The translations under genes and the position numbers were made by a program. A model generated the notes under the pieces. That model was given only the letters and a program-made list of their open reading frames with translations. It made no database searches and was not told the origin of the DNA. From a virus (lineage: Duplodnaviria > Caudoviricetes), in IMG/VR virus record IMGVR_UViG_3300029787_000142, positions 1-37,474 of that record: DNA of 37,474 nt. One strand, 5' to 3'. This document shows positions 3,765 to 36,272 of the stretch, piece after piece. Within the stretch, counting starts at the first letter, position 1, and each line of letters opens with the position of its first letter.

Positions 3765-5969
3765 ATGTCAGCAAAAATTATTACATATGGATCTGGAATT
3801 ACAGCAGGCACTACGGCTATCCCAGACAACACCAGCGAAGCTCTGGACATAGAAGGGACAGACGCTAACGAATATATTTCTATCGATACGATTGATTCTA
3901 ATGCTTTGATTTCATTAAAAGCGGCCGACGGCAGTCCTGGAAAAGCGTTTGAGGTTAGGTCTGACGGCGCGGTGGGCTTTAATAACTCTAACAGCGGTTG
4001 GATGACTTACGAAGACACCACTGCGACTAATCCTACTGTCGGTCCAAGAAAAAGTGATTGGGATACCGGTATTGGTAGCGCAGCAGCCGACCAGCTTTCG
4101 CTTATTGCGGGTGGTCAAGAAGGTATCAGAGTTACAGAAGCAGGCGATGCGATTACGGAAGTGGCAGTTAAAGGCCGCACAGTCATAACCGCCGATACAT
4201 CGGGCACACCTGACGACTTGGGCGATTTTGATAATTACGCTTTAGTTTTGCAGGGTTCATCAAATACAGACGATGAAACCGCGCTTCTGCTTTCAGGCTC
4301 AAGCAACACCTACGGCGGCAGTGCCATTGTTCATAAAGACACAGGCGCAGGCGGTAAAGGCGAACTAAACTTCTATACAAAGCAGAGTACGGCGGCTGAG
4401 CCCCCGGTTAAAGTCATGACGCTGACCGATGCCGGAAGCGTTCAAACAATCGGCGCAATTTCAACAGCGCTGACCGGCACATTTACAGCAACCAACGGAA
4501 GCGCTGAAATAACCAGCGGAAGCAGTACGGCATTTACAACCGAGTTACATGTCGGTTCAGCCATTGAGCTATTTGAAGGTTCAACCAGCCGGGGCGTTTT
4601 TACAGTTTCAGCAATCGGCAGCGCTACGGCATTGACACTTGACAGTACAGTTTCAGGCTTAAGCAGCAGCCCTAAAACGGGAATGACTGGAAAGGCAGAC
4701 GGCGGCGAACTTTTTGCGGTTAAGACTGGGGACAGTAAAACGTTGTTTAGTGTGACCGGGACCGGGGCTATTCAGGTTGGCAGCGCGGCGGAAGATAGCA
4801 ACGCCAACAACAACATAGCAATTGGAGACAGCGATGCGCTTGACACAATCGAGCAAAGCGGAACTAACGGAATTAAGAATACGATTATTGGTCACGCCGA
4901 TGATAACTATAAATTAACGACCGGATACGGAAATGTTTTCATTGGTTACGACTGTGGAACAGACGTTACGACCGGAAACCAGTGCGTGGCCATAGGCGAC
5001 ATCGCCATGGGTGCCGCTCAAGCTGGGGCTAATCTTACAACCGCAGTAGGTCGAAAGGCTGGATTTAGTGCAGGCAATACTGGAACTTATGTCGGAGCTT
5101 ATGCGGGTGAAGCAGTAACCGGATACAGTAATGTGGCTGTAGGTTATGGTGCGATGGGCTTGAACGGTCCAGACCAAGGTGTAGCCATAGGCCGAAGCGC
5201 TCACGCTAATTGCACAGGCGACAATAACGTGGCCATAGGCGCTTACAGTTTAGATCAGTCTGGATCGGCTGGAAACTCGGTAGCGGTCGGGTATAACGCT
5301 TTAACCGCTGCCACAGGCGATTACAATATAGCGGTCGGGAATCAAGCGGGCGACGGGGTTGGTTCGGGCGGAGGGAATTTGCTCCTGGGCTATCAGGCCG
5401 ATTGTGATGCTTCTGCAAATTATCAAATCGCGATAGGCTTTCAGGTTTCCACTTCAGCAGTTTCAACGGCAGCGATCGGTGATGCAACAAGGACAGCAAC
5501 GCTCAACTTTGGCGCAGCGGGTCAAAGCTGGTCCACGACTTCTGATGAAAGAATTAAGGAAAACGTCCAAGACTCTAAGCTGGGTTTAGATTTTATTAAC
5601 GCTCTGAGGCCGATTACTTACACTGAAATCAACCCCCAAGACTGGCCAGAAGACATTAGGCCGCACGTCTATTTTGACAGAGAAAAAACCCGCACCAACG
5701 AAGACGGCACAAAAGAAACATACATTGAGCCAGCCAAAGAACGGGAAGCAACGTCCACGGCTGTTGTCGATGGCCTCATGGCTCAAGAAGTAAAAGCCGC
5801 AGCCGATGCCGAAGGCGTAAGTTTTTCAGGCTGGGAGCAACAACCTGACGGTTTGCAGCGTTTGCAATATGAGAAATTTGTCTTACCTTTGATTGTGGCT
5901 TGCCAAGACTTAAGCGCTCAGGTCACGGCGTTAACCGCCCGAGTGGCAGAGCTTGAGGCAGGTGACTAA
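3765..5969 (+). CDS. Tail fibre/spike with C-terminal peptidase S74 intramolecular chaperone
   Basis: Repeated NxA(V/I)G beta-roll motifs. SDERIKENV...LDFINALRPITY...GLMAQEV...LQYEKFVLPLI followed by a coiled coil. Confidence 0.9.
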   Translation: MSAKIITYGSGITAGTTAIPDNTSEALDIEGTDANEYISIDTIDSNALISLKAADGSPGKAFEVRSDGAVGFNNSNSGWMTYEDTTATNPTVGPRKSDWDTGIGSAAADQLSLIAGGQEGIRVTEAGDAITEVAVKGRTVITADTSGTPDDLGDFDNYALVLQGSSNTDDETALLLSGSSNTYGGSAIVHKDTGAGGKGELNFYTKQSTAAEPPVKVMTLTDAGSVQTIGAISTALTGTFTATNGSAEITSGSSTAFTTELHVGSAIELFEGSTSRGVFTVSAIGSATALTLDSTVSGLSSSPKTGMTGKADGGELFAVKTGDSKTLFSVTGTGAIQVGSAAEDSNANNNIAIGDSDALDTIEQSGTNGIKNTIIGHADDNYKLTTGYGNVFIGYDCGTDVTTGNQCVAIGDIAMGAAQAGANLTTAVGRKAGFSAGNTGTYVGAYAGEAVTGYSNVAVGYGAMGLNGPDQGVAIGRSAHANCTGDNNVAIGAYSLDQSGSAGNSVAVGYNALTAATGDYNIAVGNQAGDGVGSGGGNLLLGYQADCDASANYQIAIGFQVSTSAVSTAAIGDATRTATLNFGAAGQSWSTTSDERIKENVQDSKLGLDFINALRPITYTEINPQDWPEDIRPHVYFDREKTRTNEDGTKETYIEPAKEREATSTAVVDGLMAQEVKAAADAEGVSFSGWEQQPDGLQRLQYEKFVLPLIVACQDLSAQVTALTARVAELEAGD

Positions 5970-5970
5970 C

Positions 5971-6258
5971 GTGGAAGATGCGTTGTTACAATCCGGAGGA
6001 ACAGCAGGTCTTATCGCTGCAATTTGGGGCGTGGCCGCTGCTATCAAACAACATAAAGAAAAGAATAACGGGGGTTCGACATACACCCGAATAACGATTT
6101 TGGAAAACAAGGTGGGTGAGCTTCAAGAGGAGCTGACACAGGCCAATGAAAAGCTTGTTAAATGCCACCGTGATTTGTGTGAGTTCCGGGAAGAATTTAG
6201 AATTTTTCTTACCCGACAAGAAACACGAGAAGAAATGCGACGGGAGATGTTGAAATGA
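5971..6258 (+). CDS. Single-TM plus coiled-coil membrane protein (holin-like or inner-membrane lysis accessory)
   Basis: GTG 5971 (in frame with track ORF 5953) just after the fibre stop. TM GLIAAIWGVAAAI, then a heptad-rich C-terminus. Confidence 0.55.
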   Translation: MEDALLQSGGTAGLIAAIWGVAAAIKQHKEKNNGGSTYTRITILENKVGELQEELTQANEKLVKCHRDLCEFREEFRIFLTRQETREEMRREMLK

Positions 6259-6518
6259 TTAAAGGTGTTACAAAAGGCGTTAAATCTACAGAGTTTTGGA
6301 TTTCTCTTGTTGGGATGCTTGGCGGGATTGTTTGTGCTGTATTTGCTGAAGCTCAGTGGGCGCAAGTAGCTGGTGCTATCCTATCTGCCGTGTGTGGTAA
6401 ATCGTATGCTGACTCTCGCAAGACAGTTAAGGCTGCAATTGCTCTTGGCGGTGCCAAAGTAGATGCTGCGCGTATCACAGCGGAGGCAACTGAAGCCGTG
6501 GGAAAGTCCGAGAAGTAG
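6255..6518 (+). CDS. Holin-like two-TM protein (87 aa)
   Basis: KSTEFW followed by two hydrophobic segments and a basic stretch. ATGA overlap with the upstream gene. Confidence 0.65.
   Translation: MIKGVTKGVKSTEFWISLVGMLGGIVCAVFAEAQWAQVAGAILSAVCGKSYADSRKTVKAAIALGGAKVDAARITAEATEAVGKSEK
6482..6506 (+). promoter_or_regulatory. Candidate programmed -1 ribosomal frameshift signal
   Basis: G GGA AAG (6500-6506) is correctly phased in the holin frame. Internal GGAGG at 6482-6486, 13 nt upstream. The -1 frame is open to 6730. Confidence 0.7.
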
Positions 6519-6730
6519 CCAGTGTTGTGGCGACAGGCTTGGCAGCGGCGGAGAGTCTTCCGGAAGATACGATTGATCTTATGCTTGGGGCTGTTGTTAA
6601 TCCTGATGGCCCCAGGGGCATTGCTAATATTGATATCTCACTGGGCAAAGACATCGCCGCATTTGCCAGTGGAGAGTTTGCAAACAATACCGATTGGTCA
6701 GCAGCCGCTGGTCTAAAAATGAGGTGGTAA
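6506..6730 (+). CDS. -1 frame extension: helix plus four amphipathic beta-strands ending in Trp (YadA-anchor-like)
   Basis: VREVASVVATGLAAAESLPEDTIDLMLGAVVN-PDG-PRGIANIDISL-GKD-IAAFASGEFA-NNTD-WSAAAGLKMRW. No convincing SD before GTG 6527. Confidence 0.65.
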   Translation, partial: VREVASVVATGLAAAESLPEDTIDLMLGAVVNPDGPRGIANIDISLGKDIAAFASGEFANNTDWSAAAGLKMRW

Positions 6731-6731
6731 A

Positions 6732-7241
6732 ATGGCTTCTCCGAAATACACAGGACAAGGCAGAGCATCCAGAGAAAAGCAAAGAGACGAGCTTCTCATG
6801 GATTTGTATGATCTTGAAAAAAAGAACGCTGATAGTGGGAGACTTTATGACCCAAGAGTTCCTGAGTTTCACAGACAGGAACTAAGAGATGCCATGGATG
6901 AAAATCTGGCTGGGTCAGGAAGCGCTAAAGCCTTTGCAGAAGGAGGTCAGCTTGGCTCTCCTGGCACAACAGACATAGAAGCTCAAAGAATGTCGGAAGC
7001 TGTTTCAATCTTAAGAGGCGAAAGACCTGAAGAAATTGAAGGAAAGTTTCGAGACACTTTAAAAAAAGCAAACAGTTACTTAAGGCCGCCTTCTTCATCT
7101 CCTTCAGAAACAGGAAAAATGACAGAAGCAGACAAAAGATTTCACATGGAAATGACTGGAAAAGGCGGGCAAGGCCCAAGCCTTGATGAAATACTTAAGA
7201 TGCTTGGAAAATCATACCATGACCAAGCAAGGAAAAAATAA
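6732..7241 (+). CDS. Hypothetical hydrophilic protein
   Basis: GAGGTGG RBS, tight gene packing, 169 aa. Confidence 0.75.
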   Translation: MASPKYTGQGRASREKQRDELLMDLYDLEKKNADSGRLYDPRVPEFHRQELRDAMDENLAGSGSAKAFAEGGQLGSPGTTDIEAQRMSEAVSILRGERPEEIEGKFRDTLKKANSYLRPPSSSPSETGKMTEADKRFHMEMTGKGGQGPSLDEILKMLGKSYHDQARKK

Positions 7242-7628: not shown

Positions 7629-7889
7629 ATGCCAGCTAAGCCAAGAAAAGGTAAAGCCAAAGTAAAGGTCACAAAAAGCGGTAAGCGTGTAAGCTACGGC
7701 CAGGCCGGTAAAGCCAAAGGTGGTGGCCCTCGCGTTAAGCCAGGCACTTCTAAAGGCGACAGCTACTGTGCAAGAAGTCTTGGTATTAAGAAAAGACTTT
7801 CTAAGAAAAAACAAAATGACCCTAATAGCCCTAACAACTTGTCTCGCAAAAGATGGAAATGCGTAGGCGCTAAGTCAAAGAGAAAGTAA
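7629..7889 (+). CDS. Small Lys/Arg-rich protein
   Basis: 86 aa, very basic. SYG...GDSYCARS...SRKRWKC pattern that I recall from environmental phages. Confidence 0.8.
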   Translation: MPAKPRKGKAKVKVTKSGKRVSYGQAGKAKGGGPRVKPGTSKGDSYCARSLGIKKRLSKKKQNDPNSPNNLSRKRWKCVGAKSKRK

Positions 7890-8086
7890 TGGCAGCAAAA
7901 AAAAGGTCTAAGCCAAAAAGTCGAGTAAATGAATCTGGCAACTACACTAAGCCAACAATGCGAAAAAATCTTTTTAACAAGATTAAGGCAGCAGGCAAAG
8001 GTGGTAAGCCGGGCCAGTGGTCAGCGCGTAAAGCTCAAATGCTAGCTAAGCAGTACAAGGCTGCTGGCGGAGGTTATAAGTCATGA
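7889..8086 (+). CDS. Small basic protein with GGKPGQWSARKAQ motif
   Basis: TAATG coupling. NYTKP..RK..KIKA.GKGGKPGQWSARKAQMLAKQYKAAGGGY. Confidence 0.85.
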   Translation: MAAKKRSKPKSRVNESGNYTKPTMRKNLFNKIKAAGKGGKPGQWSARKAQMLAKQYKAAGGGYKS

Positions 8087-8208
8087 AAAAGAAACTTAAG
8101 AAAGTATCTAAAGCTTTAAGAAAAGCATCCAGCATGCACAAAGCCCAGGCTAAAACTCTTGATGGTTTGGCTAAAAAGAAAAAAGTTTCTCGCAAAAAGA
8201 AGAAGTAA
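8083..8208 (+). CDS. 41-aa Lys-rich peptide (not in ORF track)
   Basis: GGAGG RBS and ATGA overlap. MKKKLKKVSKALRKASSMHKAQAKTLDGLAKKKKVSRKKKK fills the gap between its neighbours. Confidence 0.8.
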   Translation: MKKKLKKVSKALRKASSMHKAQAKTLDGLAKKKKVSRKKKK

Positions 8209-8210
8209 AC

Positions 8211-8447
8211 ATGGCGCTTAAAAAACCCCAGAAAAGCTTAAAGAAATGGACCAAACAAAAGTGGCGAACCAAGTCAGGTAAGCCCAGCACTCAAGGTCCA
8301 AAGGCAACTGGTGAACGCTACCTTCCTTCTGCTAAGATTAAAAAAATGACAGCAAAAGAATATGCTGCAACCACTAGAAAAAAACGAGCTGATACTAAAA
8401 AAGGTAAGCAGCACAGCAAGCAACCTAAGAAAACTAGGAGATCCTAA
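8211..8447 (+). CDS. Small basic protein with QKSLKKWTKQKWRT...ERYLP motif
   Basis: 78 aa, highly basic, packed in the operon. Confidence 0.85.
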   Translation: MALKKPQKSLKKWTKQKWRTKSGKPSTQGPKATGERYLPSAKIKKMTAKEYAATTRKKRADTKKGKQHSKQPKKTRRS

Positions 8448-8548
8448 TGATGAAAAAGAAAAAGCTAGTAAAGCCAAAAGCCAAAAAAACAATGCCTAAA
8501 AAATCTAAGGCAGTAAAAAAGAAATCTAAAAAAATGACAGGATATTGA
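8447..8548 (+). CDS. 33-aa Lys-rich peptide (not in ORF track)
   Basis: AGGAG RBS at 8436-8440 and TAATG coupling. MMKKKKLVKPKAKKTMPKKSKAVKKKSKKMTGY. Confidence 0.75.
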   Translation: MMKKKKLVKPKAKKTMPKKSKAVKKKSKKMTGY

Positions 8549-8561
8549 GGAGCTAAAAAGC

Positions 8562-8969
8562 GTGGGTAAAGTAGGACAATACTTCTCAGCAAGCGAGTTC
8601 GCTTGTTCATGCTGCGGGAAAACTAACCCTGCTCAATCCCTTGTAAGCGTCTTAGACAGCGTTCGCAAGGTTCTTGGACCATTGCGCATTAACTCGTCTT
8701 ATCGCTGCGAGAAGCACAATAAAGCCGTAGGTGGAACAGATAAAAGCTGGCACCTTCCTCGTGATGGAGTGGTGTATGCTGCTGATGTTACATATGTAGA
8801 TCCATCCAAAAGGCATGGGACATATATGCTTCGCCTGTACATTGAACTGGAAAATGCAGCCAGAAGGCTAGGCCCTAACTATGGCATCGGGTTGTATGAA
8901 AATTTCGTACACTTTGACACCCGCCCAACCAAACCGGCCAGGTGGTTTAAGTATAACTGGCCTCGATAG
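8562..8969 (+). CDS. Peptidase M15A-family endolysin
   Basis: YFSASEFACSCCG...INSSYRC..HN..VGG...SWH...AAD...GIGLYENFVHFDTR. Confidence 0.88.
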   Translation: MGKVGQYFSASEFACSCCGKTNPAQSLVSVLDSVRKVLGPLRINSSYRCEKHNKAVGGTDKSWHLPRDGVVYAADVTYVDPSKRHGTYMLRLYIELENAARRLGPNYGIGLYENFVHFDTRPTKPARWFKYNWPR

Positions 8970-30500: not shown

Positions 30501-30628
30501 AAATTTACGACGCAGACAACAGCGCCTCTACTGGTGATGGGTTTGTAATTGAAAGCATTGCCTTAGAAATTGGAACTAAGCGAGGCATCTTTAGAACGTC
30601 AGAATCTAACACAATTGGAGCGAACTAA
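27509..30628 (+). CDS. Tail nozzle/tubular protein (beta-propeller)
   Basis: LENG.F...G.I.KRKG N-terminus, HRNRLF..IFFS, LKTGW. Start moved to the TAATG-coupled ATG 27509 (1039 aa). Confidence 0.8.
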   Translation: MPLKKKVAVIPFGKGVQSKKTDITLEAGELEVLENGIFDKLGHIAKRKGHSESAWSISSVGKPQAFFQFQGAIYWLTSMGSVYRLNPNDLTSFDYLGAYSPVHTETFTASGESALHHQENPHIALSGNGNYLCVVYTEADYDYTNNAINYKYRWVAVDTATMKIVDTKSGRTADALARYTFNGRVKVAAVGNTHFAIYWEYNNGGSYELRRDEMVPNSTGQQPSFASGGVVIAASSNDYNQTPAQQSFDISETASIGSVHVAYYKTNSGSHSVRYVKDNAPLDNTSSADLDYGTDFNGGLSGTAPVSPLAIGRSALGAERIYIGYRTDSSSTIRVYLFPEGVASSTALTATDYHSSSHFIPHGFVDYRPTPGVLTTDYVAFVYQSGSTSSPYAQNARYIQDPSGTPAFVAGVKAGINGRHSIGPFAFTTGSDSMKSIVVGAGDQYTADSEFGSIVFNGTLGANVGDEWTGVSAVNSFKYEHSADSCRTVTGSGVAYSAFPRSSNINTFPDGSGGSTVVTNSNINVLKFTPGIPEWGVRYASLGKSVFFNVGNAIYRDSFGNNLDILGMPKPVIKSATASSGGSLDEADYKYKAVFEKEDAQGNLYRSEPSDEFSVSTTSSNKTVTVLVHNMHDIKAGGTYRVALYRTEGGGNIFHKVQTINGTSASNLTVSFVDDIADSSVLAGAFLYTEGGELPSTRCPASFYVEAHRNRLFVISEDNRIFFSKEYQEGFGVSFTDTFFVPLDGLDDDKPTALGSAGGTIYLFRENSIWALSGDGPDKTGTGNYYTPQLVSNSIGALKGSPTIFTDEGLFFQSTKGIFLVGSGGITYVGSPVEDVLGTSRIIDMIQDQETSTIRFITDSNVIAYNYSTKQWSNYTFSTLGDYKIIGAGNADGDIYLSTNNSKLWKESGYKLGTTYLPLSLKTGWISFNEIQGFGRVYRFALLGKSKDKHTLTVKVYYNYDDNSTPDIYTFTTTSADDAVLQFRAHMKQQKCEAVKFEIYDADNSASTGDGFVIESIALEIGTKRGIFRTSESNTIGAN

Positions 30629-33447
30629 TGGCTAGTGCACAAGCAGCAGGCTACGGCGAAATGCTAAGAGAAGAAGAAGATGATGAGCAGGGGCTTGTTT
30701 CTGCAGCAGCAGGAGGCCCTCAGGAAACTCAGCCAATGTCAGGTGACAATCCTTTTGGTGGTGGCGACCCTATTACTGACAATTTAGACACAAGCCCAAT
30801 TAATAGCGGCGACCCTACAGGAGTAGCGTCAAGCCCTGGCGGAGGTATTGATCTTAATGCTGTTGCCCCAGGAATACCGGGAGCAAATGTAAGCTCTCCA
30901 GAAGATGCGCCAACACCACCATCTGTTGCAGGAACAGCAATAAATACTGGAGCTAATGCAAACGTATCTGCTCAAGCTCCTATGTATTATGAAGATGAGT
31001 TTATTGATCCTCTTATTAAAAGAGACGTTCTTCAAAGAGAAGACGCTCAGCTCAGCGCAGAAGGATTTGATGCAGCAAACGTTGGCAGCGCACTTGGTGA
31101 AACAGGCATTACAGCCGGAGATTTTACAGGCGCTGATTTAAACGCCCAGGACCAAATGGGAAGGTCTGCACAACAAACCCAGATGGAGCTGCTAAAACAA
31201 GCAGCAGCAGGTCAAATGAGCCCTGCCATCCAACAGCAACGAGACAGAGCAACACAAGATGCACTTGCCTTGATGGCAACTCAACGAGGTGTTCCTGCGG
31301 CAGCAGCTATGCGTACTGGCATGCAAGGTATTTCTGAAGCAGGAAGACAAGCAACAGAGGCTGCGGCCCAGCAACAGCTCCAGGCAACTCAAATGCTTGG
31401 CGATGCAGGAACTCAGTTTAGACAACAAGAAATCGCAAAAGCGTCAGAACAGGCCCAGTTAAACCAGCAAGCAACAATAAGACAAGCAGAGCTTGATCTT
31501 GAAGCAATGACATCAACCGCTCAAATAGAACAAGAGCGGTTAAATCTTATTGGCAACTTCCAGCAACAAGCAAACTTAACCAATGCTCAAATGGCAGATG
31601 AGATGGCTTTAGCAGAAGCTCAAGTAAACGCTCAGCTTGAAAATCAAAGAGACCAAATGGTTACTTCTTTAACAAGCCTTGGTGTTGAACGAGACATGGC
31701 TGAAATGCAAATAGCTTCAGAAATGGAAAGACTTAAAGAAGAGCTTCTTTATAAATTCTGGGCAGGAAAACTTGGTGCAGCCACTCAAATTGGTACTGGG
31801 CTTATGGAAGCAGCCAGTGATTCAGAAGATATTTTTGAACAATTTATTGAAGAAGGCTCTGTCTTTAATATCTTTGGAGGATATCAAACCCCTGAAGGTT
31901 ACGAGGTTGGCGGAGCGCAAATTACAGGGCCATTAGGATATCAGGGTGACTTAGGCCCAGGCTTTGGAGCTGTTCCAGGAGCAAACCAGCCAGGTGCAGT
32001 TTACGATGTATCATCTACTGAAGGAGCACCGGTAGTTGTTAACCCAACTGAAGCAGAAGTTTCCGGCATAGAAGCAAAACAAAACATTGCGCCAATTGGA
32101 ACCAGGGACGAGTTTTACAGAAAACGTGAGCCTACTAGGTTTGGTCAAATGGAAAACTCGCCTACGGAATTTGCAGGAAATATTTCTGCTACAGATCCAA
32201 TGGCAATGAACAAGGTAGGCACATCTAAACTTGGTCAAGTAAACAGAGGTCTTCTTAAGTCTGAGCAAAAAGACCTACTAAAAGCTGCAACAGCAGACCC
32301 TTATCAAACAAGAGCTAAGCCATCTGCAGCGTTCAGAGGAGGCATGCAGACTGTATCTGATTTTATGGAATATGGTTCATTGGGTGCAGCTGCTTCTGGG
32401 TTAGCAAGCTCAAACAAAGAAGAGCGAGAACAGTCAGCTCATGCTCTTGGAAGATATGGAGCTCAAAAAGCGCTCGAGGCCGGAGTAGAAGAAGCTTCTG
32501 AATACATCGACAAAGTAAGCAAAGAGGTTGGTGAGGAAGCAATTAAGCTTGGCGATGTTGCAAAAGAAACAGCCAGCATTGCAGGCAAAGCTTCTGAAGA
32601 AACTTTAAAGTCAGCCGGAGAAAGAGCTGCATCGGAAGCTGCTCCAATTACAGCGGCTCAGGCAGCGCCATACATTGGCGGAACATTACAGTTTCTTTCA
32701 AGCACTCTTCAGGGAGACCAAACAGGCCCTGCCGCAATTAGAGCTGGCGGTGCAACGCTTGGTGGTTTAGCAGGCGCAGGCGTAGCTTCTGCGCTTGGTC
32801 AAGCAGCGGCAACAGGCGCAGCAGCAGCAGCCATGGGTGGAGCTACAAGTGGCGCCGCAGCAGGCTCTGCGCTTCCGGGTATTGGGACAGCAATCGGTGC
32901 AGGTGTAGGCGCACTTTCAGGCGCACTTGGCGCTGCAGCTGGTTCTGCAGGAGCAGAGCCTCTTGCCAGAAAAGCAACTAAGCAACCTAGAAAACCATTA
33001 AGCTTTCAGGGAATTAGAGACCCTGAATCAATGGTTGGTGCGCCTTCGGCCCCAGGAGTCTATTCTGGGCTTGAAACTAAAAGGTACATTGAAGATCTTA
33101 CCCCAGTATCATCAAGCATGAGATACGGTGAAATCTCTGACGAAAATGCAAAAACAGGAATTGGCCCTTCGCAAGATGAGCTTTCTGGTTTCTTGAGAGA
33201 GCTTAATCCTGTTAAGTATGACTATAAGCCAGAGTATGGTGGGGAAAAGAATCAATACGGAATCATTGCTCAAGATGCACAAAAGACTCCAGTAGGAGAT
33301 TCCTTTGTTAAGCAAAATGGTGATGGCACTCATGTAATTGATACAGGAAAAGCAACTATGGTTAACATGGCTGCATTGGCTAACCAGCAAAGAATTCTTG
33401 ATAGACAAGACATGTTAATTGCTGAGCTTCTGAAAGGAAGAGGATAA
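30628..33447 (+). CDS. Putative ejection (DNA delivery) protein with C-terminal S74-like chaperone domain
   Basis: Gln/Ala-rich helical core and a Gly/Ala zipper. SDENAK..I...LNPVKYDYK...GIIAQD. Confidence 0.72.
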   Translation: MASAQAAGYGEMLREEEDDEQGLVSAAAGGPQETQPMSGDNPFGGGDPITDNLDTSPINSGDPTGVASSPGGGIDLNAVAPGIPGANVSSPEDAPTPPSVAGTAINTGANANVSAQAPMYYEDEFIDPLIKRDVLQREDAQLSAEGFDAANVGSALGETGITAGDFTGADLNAQDQMGRSAQQTQMELLKQAAAGQMSPAIQQQRDRATQDALALMATQRGVPAAAAMRTGMQGISEAGRQATEAAAQQQLQATQMLGDAGTQFRQQEIAKASEQAQLNQQATIRQAELDLEAMTSTAQIEQERLNLIGNFQQQANLTNAQMADEMALAEAQVNAQLENQRDQMVTSLTSLGVERDMAEMQIASEMERLKEELLYKFWAGKLGAATQIGTGLMEAASDSEDIFEQFIEEGSVFNIFGGYQTPEGYEVGGAQITGPLGYQGDLGPGFGAVPGANQPGAVYDVSSTEGAPVVVNPTEAEVSGIEAKQNIAPIGTRDEFYRKREPTRFGQMENSPTEFAGNISATDPMAMNKVGTSKLGQVNRGLLKSEQKDLLKAATADPYQTRAKPSAAFRGGMQTVSDFMEYGSLGAAASGLASSNKEEREQSAHALGRYGAQKALEAGVEEASEYIDKVSKEVGEEAIKLGDVAKETASIAGKASEETLKSAGERAASEAAPITAAQAAPYIGGTLQFLSSTLQGDQTGPAAIRAGGATLGGLAGAGVASALGQAAATGAAAAAMGGATSGAAAGSALPGIGTAIGAGVGALSGALGAAAGSAGAEPLARKATKQPRKPLSFQGIRDPESMVGAPSAPGVYSGLETKRYIEDLTPVSSSMRYGEISDENAKTGIGPSQDELSGFLRELNPVKYDYKPEYGGEKNQYGIIAQDAQKTPVGDSFVKQNGDGTHVIDTGKATMVNMAALANQQRILDRQDMLIAELLKGRG

Positions 33448-36272
33448 TGGCAGGACCACAAAGAAGCTTACCTCAATCAACAGTTGGCTCAGGAACAATA
33501 AGTGATTCTGAGTCTGGTTTTTTTGAAACCAGGGCTAAAAGAGAAGCAAGTGAGCTTAATGAGCGTCTTGCGCAAATGACCCCAGAGCAAAGAGCAAAGC
33601 AATTTGAAGGAATGCAATCGTCTAGGCCAAACATAATGCTTAGACAAGGTCGAATTGATCCAGAGCTTTTGCAAAGCAGACCAGAAGATGAAGATGCTGT
33701 TATGGCTTCAATTAGGTCTCCAAGAGATCCTTACCTTGAAAGCTTAGCTGAAGGAATTCGCTCAGATCAGGATCTTCAACAATCTATTTCTCGTTCTGCT
33801 GAAACTCAAGAAACTGGCCCATATTCTGGCGAGCTTGGAGGCTTTTCCGCTCCTGCAATTGATGACAGTTTGCCCGATGATGCAGCTACAAGGCTAGCAG
33901 AAGCTACTGGGATGCCAGTAGAAAAAGCAAGGCTTGCTTTGGGCATTACTGGAAAATCTACTGGAGTTAGTAAAGAAGTTGCAGATGGACCAAATCCAGG
34001 AGAGCCAGGGAGCGCTGGCCAGGACCCTAATGATCCTATGGCTATTGACCCTATGGATGACAAGCAAGTTCTTGAAAAAGCAAGAATGCTTGCGTTTGGA
34101 AAAAATAGTCCATTCGAAAAATATGGAGAAATCCAAGCAACTGCAATGTCAGAAATTGCCAAAAGCCAAAACAGGGTAAAGCAGCTTAAGCAAGAGTCTA
34201 TGGATGCAGGGTTAAATATAAGAAACCTTAATGAGGCAACTCAGGCTGAAAGAATCCTGTCAGAAAATTTTGCTCAAACAACAAGAAACGAAGAACTTGC
34301 ACTTCAATTAGAGCAAGAAGAAAGAAAAAAAGAATCATACGAAGAAGTCTTTGGAAGAGAAGGCGTTGCAACAAAATGGATGGAAACTAAAAAGCGTTAC
34401 ATGGATAACATCAAGGCTACTTCTCATATTGATGAAAGTGGTGCTTTTGGTTTTTCTACATGGGGTGAAACTTTTAGAACAATTGGAGCCGTTGTTGCAA
34501 TGGGCGCTCAAGTTGCCGGTAAAATTGCACTTGAGAAAAAAGGCTTAGGGGCAGCTTTGCCTAACATAGTTATGCCTTTAATTATGAAAGCAATTGATGC
34601 TGACATTAGAAGAGATGAAACAGCTTACAATCGAGCAAGGCAAGAAGGCGTAGAGCACTCTGGCTTAATAGATGACTTTTTAAAAATTTACGACAAAAAA
34701 GATGCAGCAATTAATGCTGTTTATGAGGTTGGAATTAATGCTGCAAGAGCAAGGCTTGCACACTTTAATAGCTTGCTTCCAGGCACTCCTGATAGTCAAT
34801 TAAGAAAAGATTACTATCAAGTAATTTTAGATCAACTTAATGAAAAAGCCATAGAGAAAGAAACAAATCAACTTAAAGCATTTGATGAACTTGAAAAATC
34901 ATTCTTAGCATCTTCTCTTGATAGCGAAGGAGCTATTAGAACTGCACGCTCAGCGCAAACTGCGCGCGGGCTTTCAATGATGAATGCTTACAAGGTTCTT
35001 AATGCTAAAGGCGAAGAAAAAACAGATAAGCTTCTTTGGGGCAATCTTGAAAAAGAAGCTGAAAAATCAGAAAGAGCATTTATAAGCAGAGCAAGAGAAA
35101 TTAAAGCTCTTTCGTCTGCTGTTATTGCTGAAGCTGGTGGAGAATTTGGATCTGTTCAGCAAATGCTTCTTATGTCTATTCAGGAAATTACAGATAGATT
35201 TGGCGACAAAATGCCTCCAGGCTTAACGGGAAAACTTTCTCAGCTTGAAGGTCTTATGAATACCCAAATTACAGCTTTTGCTAAAACCTTTGAAAACAAA
35301 CTCACAGAAGGTGACATTAAAAGATACGAAGCAATTCTTGGCAGCTTAAAAACTGCAAGTCTTGTTAATGTTTTAGCGAATCATTCACGCGCAGAGTATG
35401 CAGTTATGGAAAGCTATTTAACAAGAATGGCTATTTCTAGAAACTCTGGGGATTATGATCGTTATCGTCCTGCTTTTGTTGCGGCAATAGGAAACCCAGA
35501 AGAAGCTTTGTCTCGTTATGAGGATTCAATTAAAAGAAGACTTGAAATGGGTAAAGCCGGGGTTCTTAGAAGGCTAGATGTAGGATTGACTCCTTTTAGC
35601 ATTGCTTTAAGCCAGGGCCAGGAAATGAGTAATCTTACCAAGCTTGAAATAGAAAGAAGAATTAACGAGCCTGCTCAAGGATCTTTTAAATCTGATTTTG
35701 ATTCTATGAAAGAAGAGGCTCAAAGAAGAACAATTAGCAGACAAAAAGCAAAAAATGACTCTGCTGCACCTGCAAGCGTAAGCCTTACAGGAATGCCTAC
35801 AACTCCAGGCGGAAACCCTCAGCCTAAAAAAGAAGCAAATAACTACACTGCTCCTTTGGCTAACATGAAGTTAACTAGCAAGTTTAATAAGCCTGGAGAA
35901 TACAGAACACATAAAGGCAAAAAATCTAGACACAAGGGTGCTGACTTTAGAGCAAAAGTAGGAACTCCTTTATACTCTCCATTTAATGGCACAATTATAG
36001 AAGCAAAAATGACAGGAAATAAAACACCAAACGGAAACTACATTCGAATAAAGGATGATAAAACAGGTTACGAATGGGCCTTTATACACTTAGATGCATT
36101 TGACGAATCTCTTGCTGAGGGAAGAAAAGTTCCTCCAGGATTTGTTCTTGGAAAAACTGGCAAGTCAGGAAAAGGAAACGTAGATGCTCACCTGCATATT
36201 CAGGTAAAAGATGCAAAAGACAATATAATTGATCCTGCTCCGCTGTTAGCCCAGTACTTGGGAAATAGATAA
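33447..36272 (+). CDS. Putative ejection protein with C-terminal M23 peptidase
   Basis: HKGAD (HxxxD), GTP..SP..G, GNYI.I, FIHL, G.SG, HLH. Confidence 0.85.
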   Translation: MAGPQRSLPQSTVGSGTISDSESGFFETRAKREASELNERLAQMTPEQRAKQFEGMQSSRPNIMLRQGRIDPELLQSRPEDEDAVMASIRSPRDPYLESLAEGIRSDQDLQQSISRSAETQETGPYSGELGGFSAPAIDDSLPDDAATRLAEATGMPVEKARLALGITGKSTGVSKEVADGPNPGEPGSAGQDPNDPMAIDPMDDKQVLEKARMLAFGKNSPFEKYGEIQATAMSEIAKSQNRVKQLKQESMDAGLNIRNLNEATQAERILSENFAQTTRNEELALQLEQEERKKESYEEVFGREGVATKWMETKKRYMDNIKATSHIDESGAFGFSTWGETFRTIGAVVAMGAQVAGKIALEKKGLGAALPNIVMPLIMKAIDADIRRDETAYNRARQEGVEHSGLIDDFLKIYDKKDAAINAVYEVGINAARARLAHFNSLLPGTPDSQLRKDYYQVILDQLNEKAIEKETNQLKAFDELEKSFLASSLDSEGAIRTARSAQTARGLSMMNAYKVLNAKGEEKTDKLLWGNLEKEAEKSERAFISRAREIKALSSAVIAEAGGEFGSVQQMLLMSIQEITDRFGDKMPPGLTGKLSQLEGLMNTQITAFAKTFENKLTEGDIKRYEAILGSLKTASLVNVLANHSRAEYAVMESYLTRMAISRNSGDYDRYRPAFVAAIGNPEEALSRYEDSIKRRLEMGKAGVLRRLDVGLTPFSIALSQGQEMSNLTKLEIERRINEPAQGSFKSDFDSMKEEAQRRTISRQKAKNDSAAPASVSLTGMPTTPGGNPQPKKEANNYTAPLANMKLTSKFNKPGEYRTHKGKKSRHKGADFRAKVGTPLYSPFNGTIIEAKMTGNKTPNGNYIRIKDDKTGYEWAFIHLDAFDESLAEGRKVPPGFVLGKTGKSGKGNVDAHLHIQVKDAKDNIIDPAPLLAQYLGNR

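Follow-up and report, generated by a model that had tools for sequence, protein, structure and literature searches.

A putative frameshift-made holin-barrel protein in the lysis region of uncultured aquatic phages

Introduction

Can a phage link the inner and the outer membrane of its host at lysis without a lipoprotein? In the sections of the survey by Kongari et al. (2018; PMC6139136) on which we draw, no spanin was identified in 91 of 677 phage genomes and the possibility is raised that an outer-membrane protein could act as o-spanin. A locus that brings up this question lies in a stretch of phage DNA of 37,474 nucleotides (IMG/VR record IMGVR_UViG_3300029787_000142), which was analysed as a whole and is called the window throughout. 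An original prediction, made from the letters of the window alone, proposed that a holin-like membrane gene is extended by a frameshift into a YadA-type beta-barrel anchor and that the long product forms part of a spanin-like lysis system. Here we compare the locus with its relatives and discuss how it may work.

Results

The window is a complete phage genome (100% complete) with direct terminal repeats and overlapping ends, and it carries genes for a terminase, a P22-like portal and a major capsid protein. No close cultured relative was found; among the matches listed the best terminase is 27% identical. The metagenome runs with shares of at least 0.2 are, among the matches listed, from marine or seawater samples, plus one from freshwater. 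The genome collections gave a single match, on a contig of 8.7 kb from a MAG with the label Parvibaculum, which we did not count as host evidence. Of two large late genes of the window, that at 30628-33447 carries an S74 chaperone-like domain at its end and that at 33447-36272 an M23 peptidase domain. The features of the locus are collected in Table 1.

Table 1. Features in and around the putative lysis module of the window
Feature	Position	Strand	Description
Tail-fibre-like gene	3765-5969		S74 domain; upstream of the lysis module
Gene U	5971..6258	+	N-terminal hydrophobic segment, predicted helical tail; overlaps the start of A; candidate holin or holin accessory
Gene A, unshifted product	6255..6518	+	87 aa, two hydrophobic segments, Ala-rich tail
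SD-like GGAGG	6482..6486	+	Possible stimulator of the frameshift, 13 nt 5' of the slip site
Slippery heptamer G GGA AAG	6500..6506	+	-1, in the phase of A, just before the stop of A
Extension B	6506..6730	+	-1 frame, 74 aa; predicted helix 6509-6553, four predicted beta strands 6569-6727, terminal W
Weak hairpin	6517..6539	+	3' of the slip site, covers the start codon of C; possible stimulator, poorly supported
Gene C	6522..6716	+	In the +1 frame of B (the frame of A); start two codons after the stop of A
Peptidase M15 endolysin	8562..8969	+	No visible signal peptide; 1.8 kb downstream of B; PF08291 E 1.8e-13, phrog_894 E 2.2e-26

The two hydrophobic segments of A, H1 and H2, span approximately residues 14-30 and 36-50. 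The two-helix layout recurs in a family of 233 homologs and, together with a KPGxKxxEFW start, is common to homologs that are followed by extension B (barrel-bearing) and homologs that are not (barrel-less). Like the class II holins, A is small, has two helices and basic termini and lies near an endolysin gene. The matches of A homologs to holin families are below threshold (PF06946, E 0.0059; PF23778, E 0.019; phrog_2359, E 0.01), and the Atlas lead for A is PF04531 at 0.83. The short product had been proposed to act as holin or regulator. With a two-helix layout near an endolysin and weak profile hints, A is a candidate holin.

The 3' end of ORF A reads G GGA AAG TCC GAG AAG TAG. The -1 frame is open from 6494 to 6730, and a slip would join 84 residues of A to the 74 residues of B, giving a product AB of 158 aa with the C-terminus AGLKMRW. 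On the plus strand of the window GGGAAA[GC] has a single match, at 6500..6506. Searches of viral, metagenome and genome collections yielded 125 loci with a match to the extension, the window included; after removal of 41 duplicates and of 25 loci lacking the junction, 59 distinct junctions were left, which are related and not independent sequences. All 59 have an in-phase slippery heptamer, located at one of five offsets and reading GGGAAAG in 35 junctions and AAAAAAG in the other 24, and none has an off-phase heptamer; more distant homologs have AAAAAAA, TTTAAAA and CCCAAAG as well. As a control, an in-phase heptamer was found within the last 45 nt of 4 of the 44 window genes. When heptamer and extension were compared over 76 of 80 A-homolog loci (four near-duplicate or truncated loci were omitted), all 28 heptamer-bearing loci had a -1 extension, which ends in W or F in 27 and is cut by the contig end in one, and the heptamer occurred in 0 of the 48 loci without such an extension.

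B has no conserved start codon, and in six of the 59 junctions there is none at all in the first 15 codons. In codons 48-70, which lie beyond the overlap with C, a share of 0.84 of the single-base codon differences is synonymous when read in the frame of B, as compared with 0.19 and 0.11 in the other frames. Because the heptamer is conserved in phase and the downstream frame is under coding selection, we strongly infer from these sequences that a programmed -1 slip produces AB. The frameshift off ORF A that the original prediction called for is thus well supported, and the motifs it quoted (GLAAAESLP, PDG, GKD, NNTD and the end AGLKMRW) are all present. Upstream SD-like elements are known as frameshift stimulators, and such a word precedes the slip site in 34 of the 35 GGGAAAG junctions versus 1 of the 24 AAAAAAG junctions. 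The hairpin of Table 1 has a consensus energy of -7.7 kcal/mol and a double change in 1 of 11 pairs.

Several other accounts of the -1 frame were rejected. Four sequencing runs are without an indel at 6500-6506, which argues against an assembly error at the slip site. B as a separate gene would start from GTG 6527, a start that is unconserved and has no nearby equivalent in 6 of the 59 junctions. Readthrough of the stop of A into the frame of C is disfavoured by the variation of this stop (TAG, TGA or TAA) and by the conserved start that C has of its own. An antisense ORF at 6475..6768 is interrupted by stops in some relatives. No in-frame fusion of A and B was found among the 59 junctions or among the longer relatives of A. 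The database proteins P0001 and P0002 (an upstream-extended -1 frame; a single-contig record without H2) were treated as artefacts. In P0001, a single-contig protein, H1 is in frame with the -1 frame and B, and H2 is missing, probably by an assembly artefact or a deletion.

The last residue of B is W or F in all 57 complete copies; in the alignment W or F is last in 46 of 46 rows and a Gly stands at position -6 in 45 of 46. A terminal aromatic motif of this kind is the BAM signal of outer-membrane barrel proteins. A model of B built from 17 close sequences had a pLDDT of 50, and the model from 25 diverse rows had a pLDDT of 91 and a pTM of 0.72, with a helix at residues 2-16 and strands at 22-32, 35-47, 50-60 and 63-72. 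The helix and four strands that had been read from the window alone are recovered in a confident model, and the terminal aromatic in the family. On the apolar side of the four strands, 1% of the residues at 22 positions are charged; on the inward face, as assigned by alternation and not by a barrel model, 31% are G/A/S and 32% D/E/K/R (18 positions, 25 rows). We count the helix-plus-four-strand fold and the one-sided apolarity as shown by the comparative data.

In a Foldseek search of the PDB with the model of B, ranks 1-4 were anchors of Hia and YadA (E 0.04-0.1, probability 0.96-0.99, TM about 0.45); neither the PDB nor the viral library gave a match at E<=0.001, and in the viral structure library the top named matches are YadA-type anchors or adhesins of phages. 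VIA likewise placed Hia first (Z 6.4, rmsd 3.7, 59 aligned), with methyltransferase sheets tying within 1 Z unit. The Pfam family YadA_anchor (PF03895) scored 16.1 bits against the extension of L137 and 13.5 against that of L134 (cut-off 22.7) and did not match the window. When sets of 17 and 35 close B proteins were run against Pfam, no YadA match appeared, and a PDB sequence search with B profiles returned nothing credible. YadA_anchor is an Atlas lead for B at 0.88; a further Atlas lead, Phage_OMP (PF24653), matched none of five records and was rejected as the family of B. The proposed YadA-type anchor thus holds as far as the nearest solved folds are those of Hia and YadA, but these structural matches are weak, the Pfam scores are sub-threshold and the residues assigned to the lumen are not mostly small. 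We predict from the models that B contributes a segment to an outer-membrane barrel and carries a BAM signal; it would work like a trimeric autotransporter anchor yet is not classed as one on the features tested. A scan of 1.84 billion representatives gave nine matches to B, and the family is therefore small and mostly unannotated. In three divergent barrels (L145:5237-5443, L150:5219-5425 and L202:5228-5398) most of the helix before strand 1 is missing; L202 has no gene C and its heptamer is CCCAAAG.

The locus is richer than the original prediction had it, which overlooked a third gene, C, embedded in B. Its predicted product has a basic N-terminus followed by a hydrophobic segment. The start two codons past the stop of A is found in 59 of 59 junctions (ATG in 44, GTG in 15), with an SD-like word before it in 48 of them, that of the window itself being weak. 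In all 59 the frame is open for at least 36 codons, with every stop past codon 36, and encodes 36-66 aa with a net charge of +3 to +9 over the first 17 residues; the hydrophobic segment has 19 residues and a KD of 1.9-3.0. Only the first 36-40 codons of C are constrained. Because C overlaps in the frame of A, the third positions of B are constrained as well: fourfold-type third positions have on average 5.4 parsimony changes in codons 4-39 versus 9.7 in codons 48-72 (p = 0.006). In the overlap the synonymous share of C goes up to 0.36 and that of B down to 0.49. When B was recoded at random with synonymous codons, 5000 times for each of 10 sequences, not one draw combined the start, open frame, charge and hydrophobicity of C; for 12 distant loci, whose starts were picked by eye, the probability that start, open frame and hydrophobicity coincide by chance is 0.0003-0.017. 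Some distant loci deviate, as C has a net charge of 0 in L145 and L150, is absent as an open frame in L202 and has a shifted start in L135 and L136, B being kept in all of them. RNA structure alone is not favoured as the reason for the frozen codons, since no more than a weak, short consensus structure is predicted and the constraint reaches approximately codon 41. Profile searches gave no family match for C, which is likely an inner-membrane timing or topology factor.

Upstream of A, gene U has a weak profile match to a holin (phrog_1296, E 0.042) and homologs in 9 of 18 other records examined, all nine belonging to the barrel group. Its charges are acidic before the hydrophobic segment and basic after it, so that U is likely oriented N-out/C-in with a cytoplasmic tail and is not an i-spanin. 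The role of a partner that had been envisaged for 5971..6258 is hence unlikely in the periplasm. Of 70 barrel loci, 52 have an endolysin gene at most 4 kb downstream, one has none and the other 17 are too short to tell; in 17 barrel loci it directly adjoins the module. These figures bear out the proposed lysis setting. The endolysins beside the module come from three unrelated families (M15 peptidase, amidase and phrog_3000/33083-like), and examples of such swaps are L049:4805, L134:2312 and window 8562. In six of the 12 barrel-group records, neither terminase nor portal nor capsid matches the window, five of the six being 98-100% complete; the presence of the module in phages without head-gene similarity suggests that it has moved between phage lineages. 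Between B and the endolysin the window has a run of five small, very Lys-rich ORFs (7629-8548), whose number and identity differ among relatives; two match PHROGs 17747 and 14910, whose function is unknown, and close to the end of the ORF at 8447-8548 there is likewise an in-phase AAAAAAG.

Barrel and lipoprotein were not found together. Of 81 A-homolog loci, 30 have only B, 37 have only a spanin-like lipoprotein, none has both and 14 have neither; among these 14 are contigs that are cut short, two loci whose barrels are divergent and three with lipoproteins of other kinds. In whole records the spanin-like lipoprotein is present in 0 of 18 of the barrel group versus 6 of 8 others, and B in 11 of 12 of the barrel group versus 0 of 8 others. 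Barrel-less A homologs are typically followed by an amphipathic ORF of about 60 aa that is overlapped by a lipoprotein gene with an invariant Cys, a layout like that of overlapped spanins; the spanin profile match of the lipoprotein is weak (phrog_456, E 0.011, in one of four tested). The mutual exclusion with spanins that the original prediction had suggested looking for in relatives is therefore seen, with a lipoprotein that is itself weakly identified as a spanin. At L159:4166-4426 and L154:3444-3740 a Trp/Val-rich lipoprotein family overlaps the ORF just after A and possibly forms an undescribed spanin pair; the N-terminus of the ORF of about 60 aa is amphipathic there and not clearly transmembrane.

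No conserved lipobox was found in A, B, C or U, the six lipobox hits in barrel loci being unconserved Cys residues inside A or C. Nor was a credible lipoprotein found in the window, by scans whose recovery of known positives was 16 of 37 and 2 of 5; the remark that this genome has no Rz/Rz1 lipoprotein is therefore upheld with moderate force. Among 18 records compared, the genome G012 has the terminase closest to that of the window. Its A gene is without slip site and barrel, and it has no recognisable spanin pair, from which it follows that a relative can do without both systems. A lipoprotein of G012 was rejected as o-spanin, as it sits in the early region and has no partner. The case of G012, which is close to the window by terminase and portal and has no other clear lipoprotein, is that of L151:4989-5228 and L217:11097-11294.

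In barrel-bearing as well as barrel-less A the N-terminus is basic, the loop acidic and H2 followed by basic residues. This charge distribution predicts an N-in/C-in orientation that leaves B in the cytoplasm, precisely the difficulty which the original prediction had raised for two transmembrane segments under the positive-inside rule, and it is the greatest weakness of a link to the outer membrane. The segments themselves differ between the groups (20 barrel-bearing versus 28 barrel-less related proteins): by the KD hydrophobicity scale, H1 is stronger in barrel-bearing A (median 2.23 versus 1.94, p 5e-5), H2 is weaker (median 1.27 versus 1.44, p 0.003) and the tail is longer (p 3e-6). A strong H1, a weak H2 and a longer tail are as expected if H2 is exported. 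The exclusivity and the hydrophobicity contrasts may represent a single evolutionary event, because the two groups are separate related lineages, possibly with different hosts. Between H1 and strand 1 there are 53-74 residues; for spanins, periplasmic lengths down to 62 residues are reported in the sections cited of PMC6139136.

Discussion

We suggest that the locus is a lysis module, likely with three products, and that AB is a lipid-free spanin substitute, a reading to which we give roughly even chances. The comparative data that point to it are the slip signal, the selection on B and C, the lysis context and the lack of co-occurrence with the spanin-like lipoprotein. According to this reading, ribosomes that do not slip would translate A and, two codons on, start again at C, and ribosomes that slip would make AB, so that the slip sets the ratio of the products. 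H1 of AB would serve as an uncleaved inner-membrane anchor and the weak H2 would be exported. BAM would recognise the terminal aromatic of AB and assemble a small oligomeric barrel in the outer membrane, with the helix remaining periplasmic and not being threaded outward. A lumen crowded for three helices would fit such a periplasmic helix. After A and/or U have released the cytoplasmic endolysin and the wall is destroyed, helical zippering of AB could draw the membranes together and lead to their fusion or tearing. A larger claim appears possible, though on the whole doubtful: that the locus of 476 bases stands for a new class of lysis machine, in which ribosomes are split between a holin with an embedded regulator and a tethered, BAM-assembled holin-barrel chimera that fuses the membranes without a lipoprotein, possibly via the pull of stalled autotransport.

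What AB does at the outer membrane could be explained differently. If H1 were a cleaved signal peptide, AB would be a free mini autotransporter-like protein or a small outer-membrane pore that makes no membrane link, and it would weaken the outer membrane at lysis or alter the cell surface, for example for the exclusion of other phages. We consider this rather unlikely. Of the two segments of barrel-bearing A, H1 is indeed the stronger one, and small residues come after it (VFA-E in the window); an inward face with 32% D/E/K/R would suit an aqueous pore, and YadA-type anchors occur in other phage proteins. However, cleavage would also affect the short product A and deprive it of its membrane role, barrel-less homologs share the two-helix layout and the KPGxKxxEFW start, and the -3/-1 pattern of small residues is not uniform. 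Taken at face value, the positive-inside topology of A leads elsewhere, namely to both helices of AB staying in the inner membrane and B forming a collar on its cytoplasmic face that times or sizes the holin lesion as antiholin or activator, with the outer membrane not being the target. Soluble sheets score nearly as high as Hia against B, a fixed minority long form fits a regulator, and G012, which does not carry B, has no visible replacement for it. Yet the invariant terminal W/F with Gly at -6, the face with 1% charge over 22 positions and the exclusivity with the lipoprotein would all be left unexplained, which makes the collar unlikely in our view.

It is also conceivable that C is the protein that acts on the outer membrane, as a cationic disruptor with AB as an accessory. 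The model for this is the disruptin gp28 of phage phiKT, a cationic peptide of 56 aa that complements a spanin mutant according to the parts cited of 10.1101/515445, and C has a suitable size and charge (36-66 aa, net +3 to +9, 59 of 59 junctions). Against it, a 19-residue hydrophobic segment with a KD of 1.9-3.0 is typical of an inner-membrane anchor, the basic charge of C is lower in distant loci, with a net value of 0 in L145 and L150, and B is kept where C has no frame (L202) or a shifted start (L135 and L136); we regard this explanation as very unlikely. Finally, AB might be a virion component or otherwise have no role in lysis, its position being incidental to the order of late genes. 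The module does come after a tail-fibre gene, and the known phage frameshifts are mostly in structural genes. But it is common to phages without similarity in terminase, portal and capsid (6 of 12 barrel-group records) and adjoins three different endolysin families, and a non-lysis role appears to us hardly credible.

Returning to AB as a lipid-free spanin substitute, the module would be a concrete and cloneable candidate for an outer-membrane-protein anchor in spanin-less phages. It is found in dozens of uncultured aquatic phages, some of them unrelated in their head genes, and gene callers miss two of its three products. A description of an A/AB/C system was not found in searches of the open-access literature of PubMed Central and bioRxiv. 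With the unimolecular spanin T1 gp11 and the Rz/Rz1 spanins, as presented in the sections cited of PMC6139136, the locus shares the site in the lysis cassette, the proposed inner-outer link, an embedded gene in the +1 frame and a periplasmic length within range. Unlike spanins, the AB module has no lipoprotein, its outer anchor consists of predicted beta strands, and it is the product of a frameshift from a holin-like gene. The polarity of AB is reversed with respect to T1 gp11, the inner anchor being N-terminal, and the embedded gene encodes an inner-membrane-type peptide and not, as in Rz/Rz1, the outer component. Two further small extra lysis factors bear a likeness by description in the parts of the reports cited: phiKT gp28 (10.1101/515445) is cationic like C, and Lcc6 of LambdaSo (10.1101/2024.01.23.576932) has a membrane helix and a cytoplasmic tail like U. 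What sets C apart is the length of its hydrophobic segment and its location inside another coding region in a different frame.

The anchors of Hia (PDB 2GR8, 3EMO) and YadA (2LME) and the family PF03895 have one helix and four antiparallel strands, a terminal aromatic and an alternating apolar face, as has B. In the sections cited of PMC3297439, the lumen of trimeric autotransporters is lined by small residues, mostly Gly and Ala, and the helix of true members runs through the pore with the N-terminus outside. An N-terminus outside is the opposite of a tether and thus counts against the AB link. B, in contrast to these anchors, is below the Pfam cut-off, and its inward face is bulky and charged, not Gly/Ala. 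No passenger-type domain was found in AB, where H1 could serve as signal, and the helix is shortened or replaced in L145, L150 and L202. On the features tested, the AB locus therefore falls outside both the spanin and the trimeric autotransporter families.

The frameshift itself has well-known counterparts. The gpG/gpGT proteins of lambda are made by a -1 frameshift at GGGAAAG, and E. coli dnaX slips at AAAAAAG with an upstream SD element. The same two heptamers are found in phase before the stop at the A/B junction, and there as here a short and a long product share the N-terminus. What differs at the A/B junction is that the shifted gene is a holin-like membrane gene, that the extension is a predicted membrane barrel module and that a third gene lies within the extension. 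If our reading is true, recoding would serve a new purpose here, as the frameshift equips a lysis protein with a module for membrane targeting and the extension houses a third gene.
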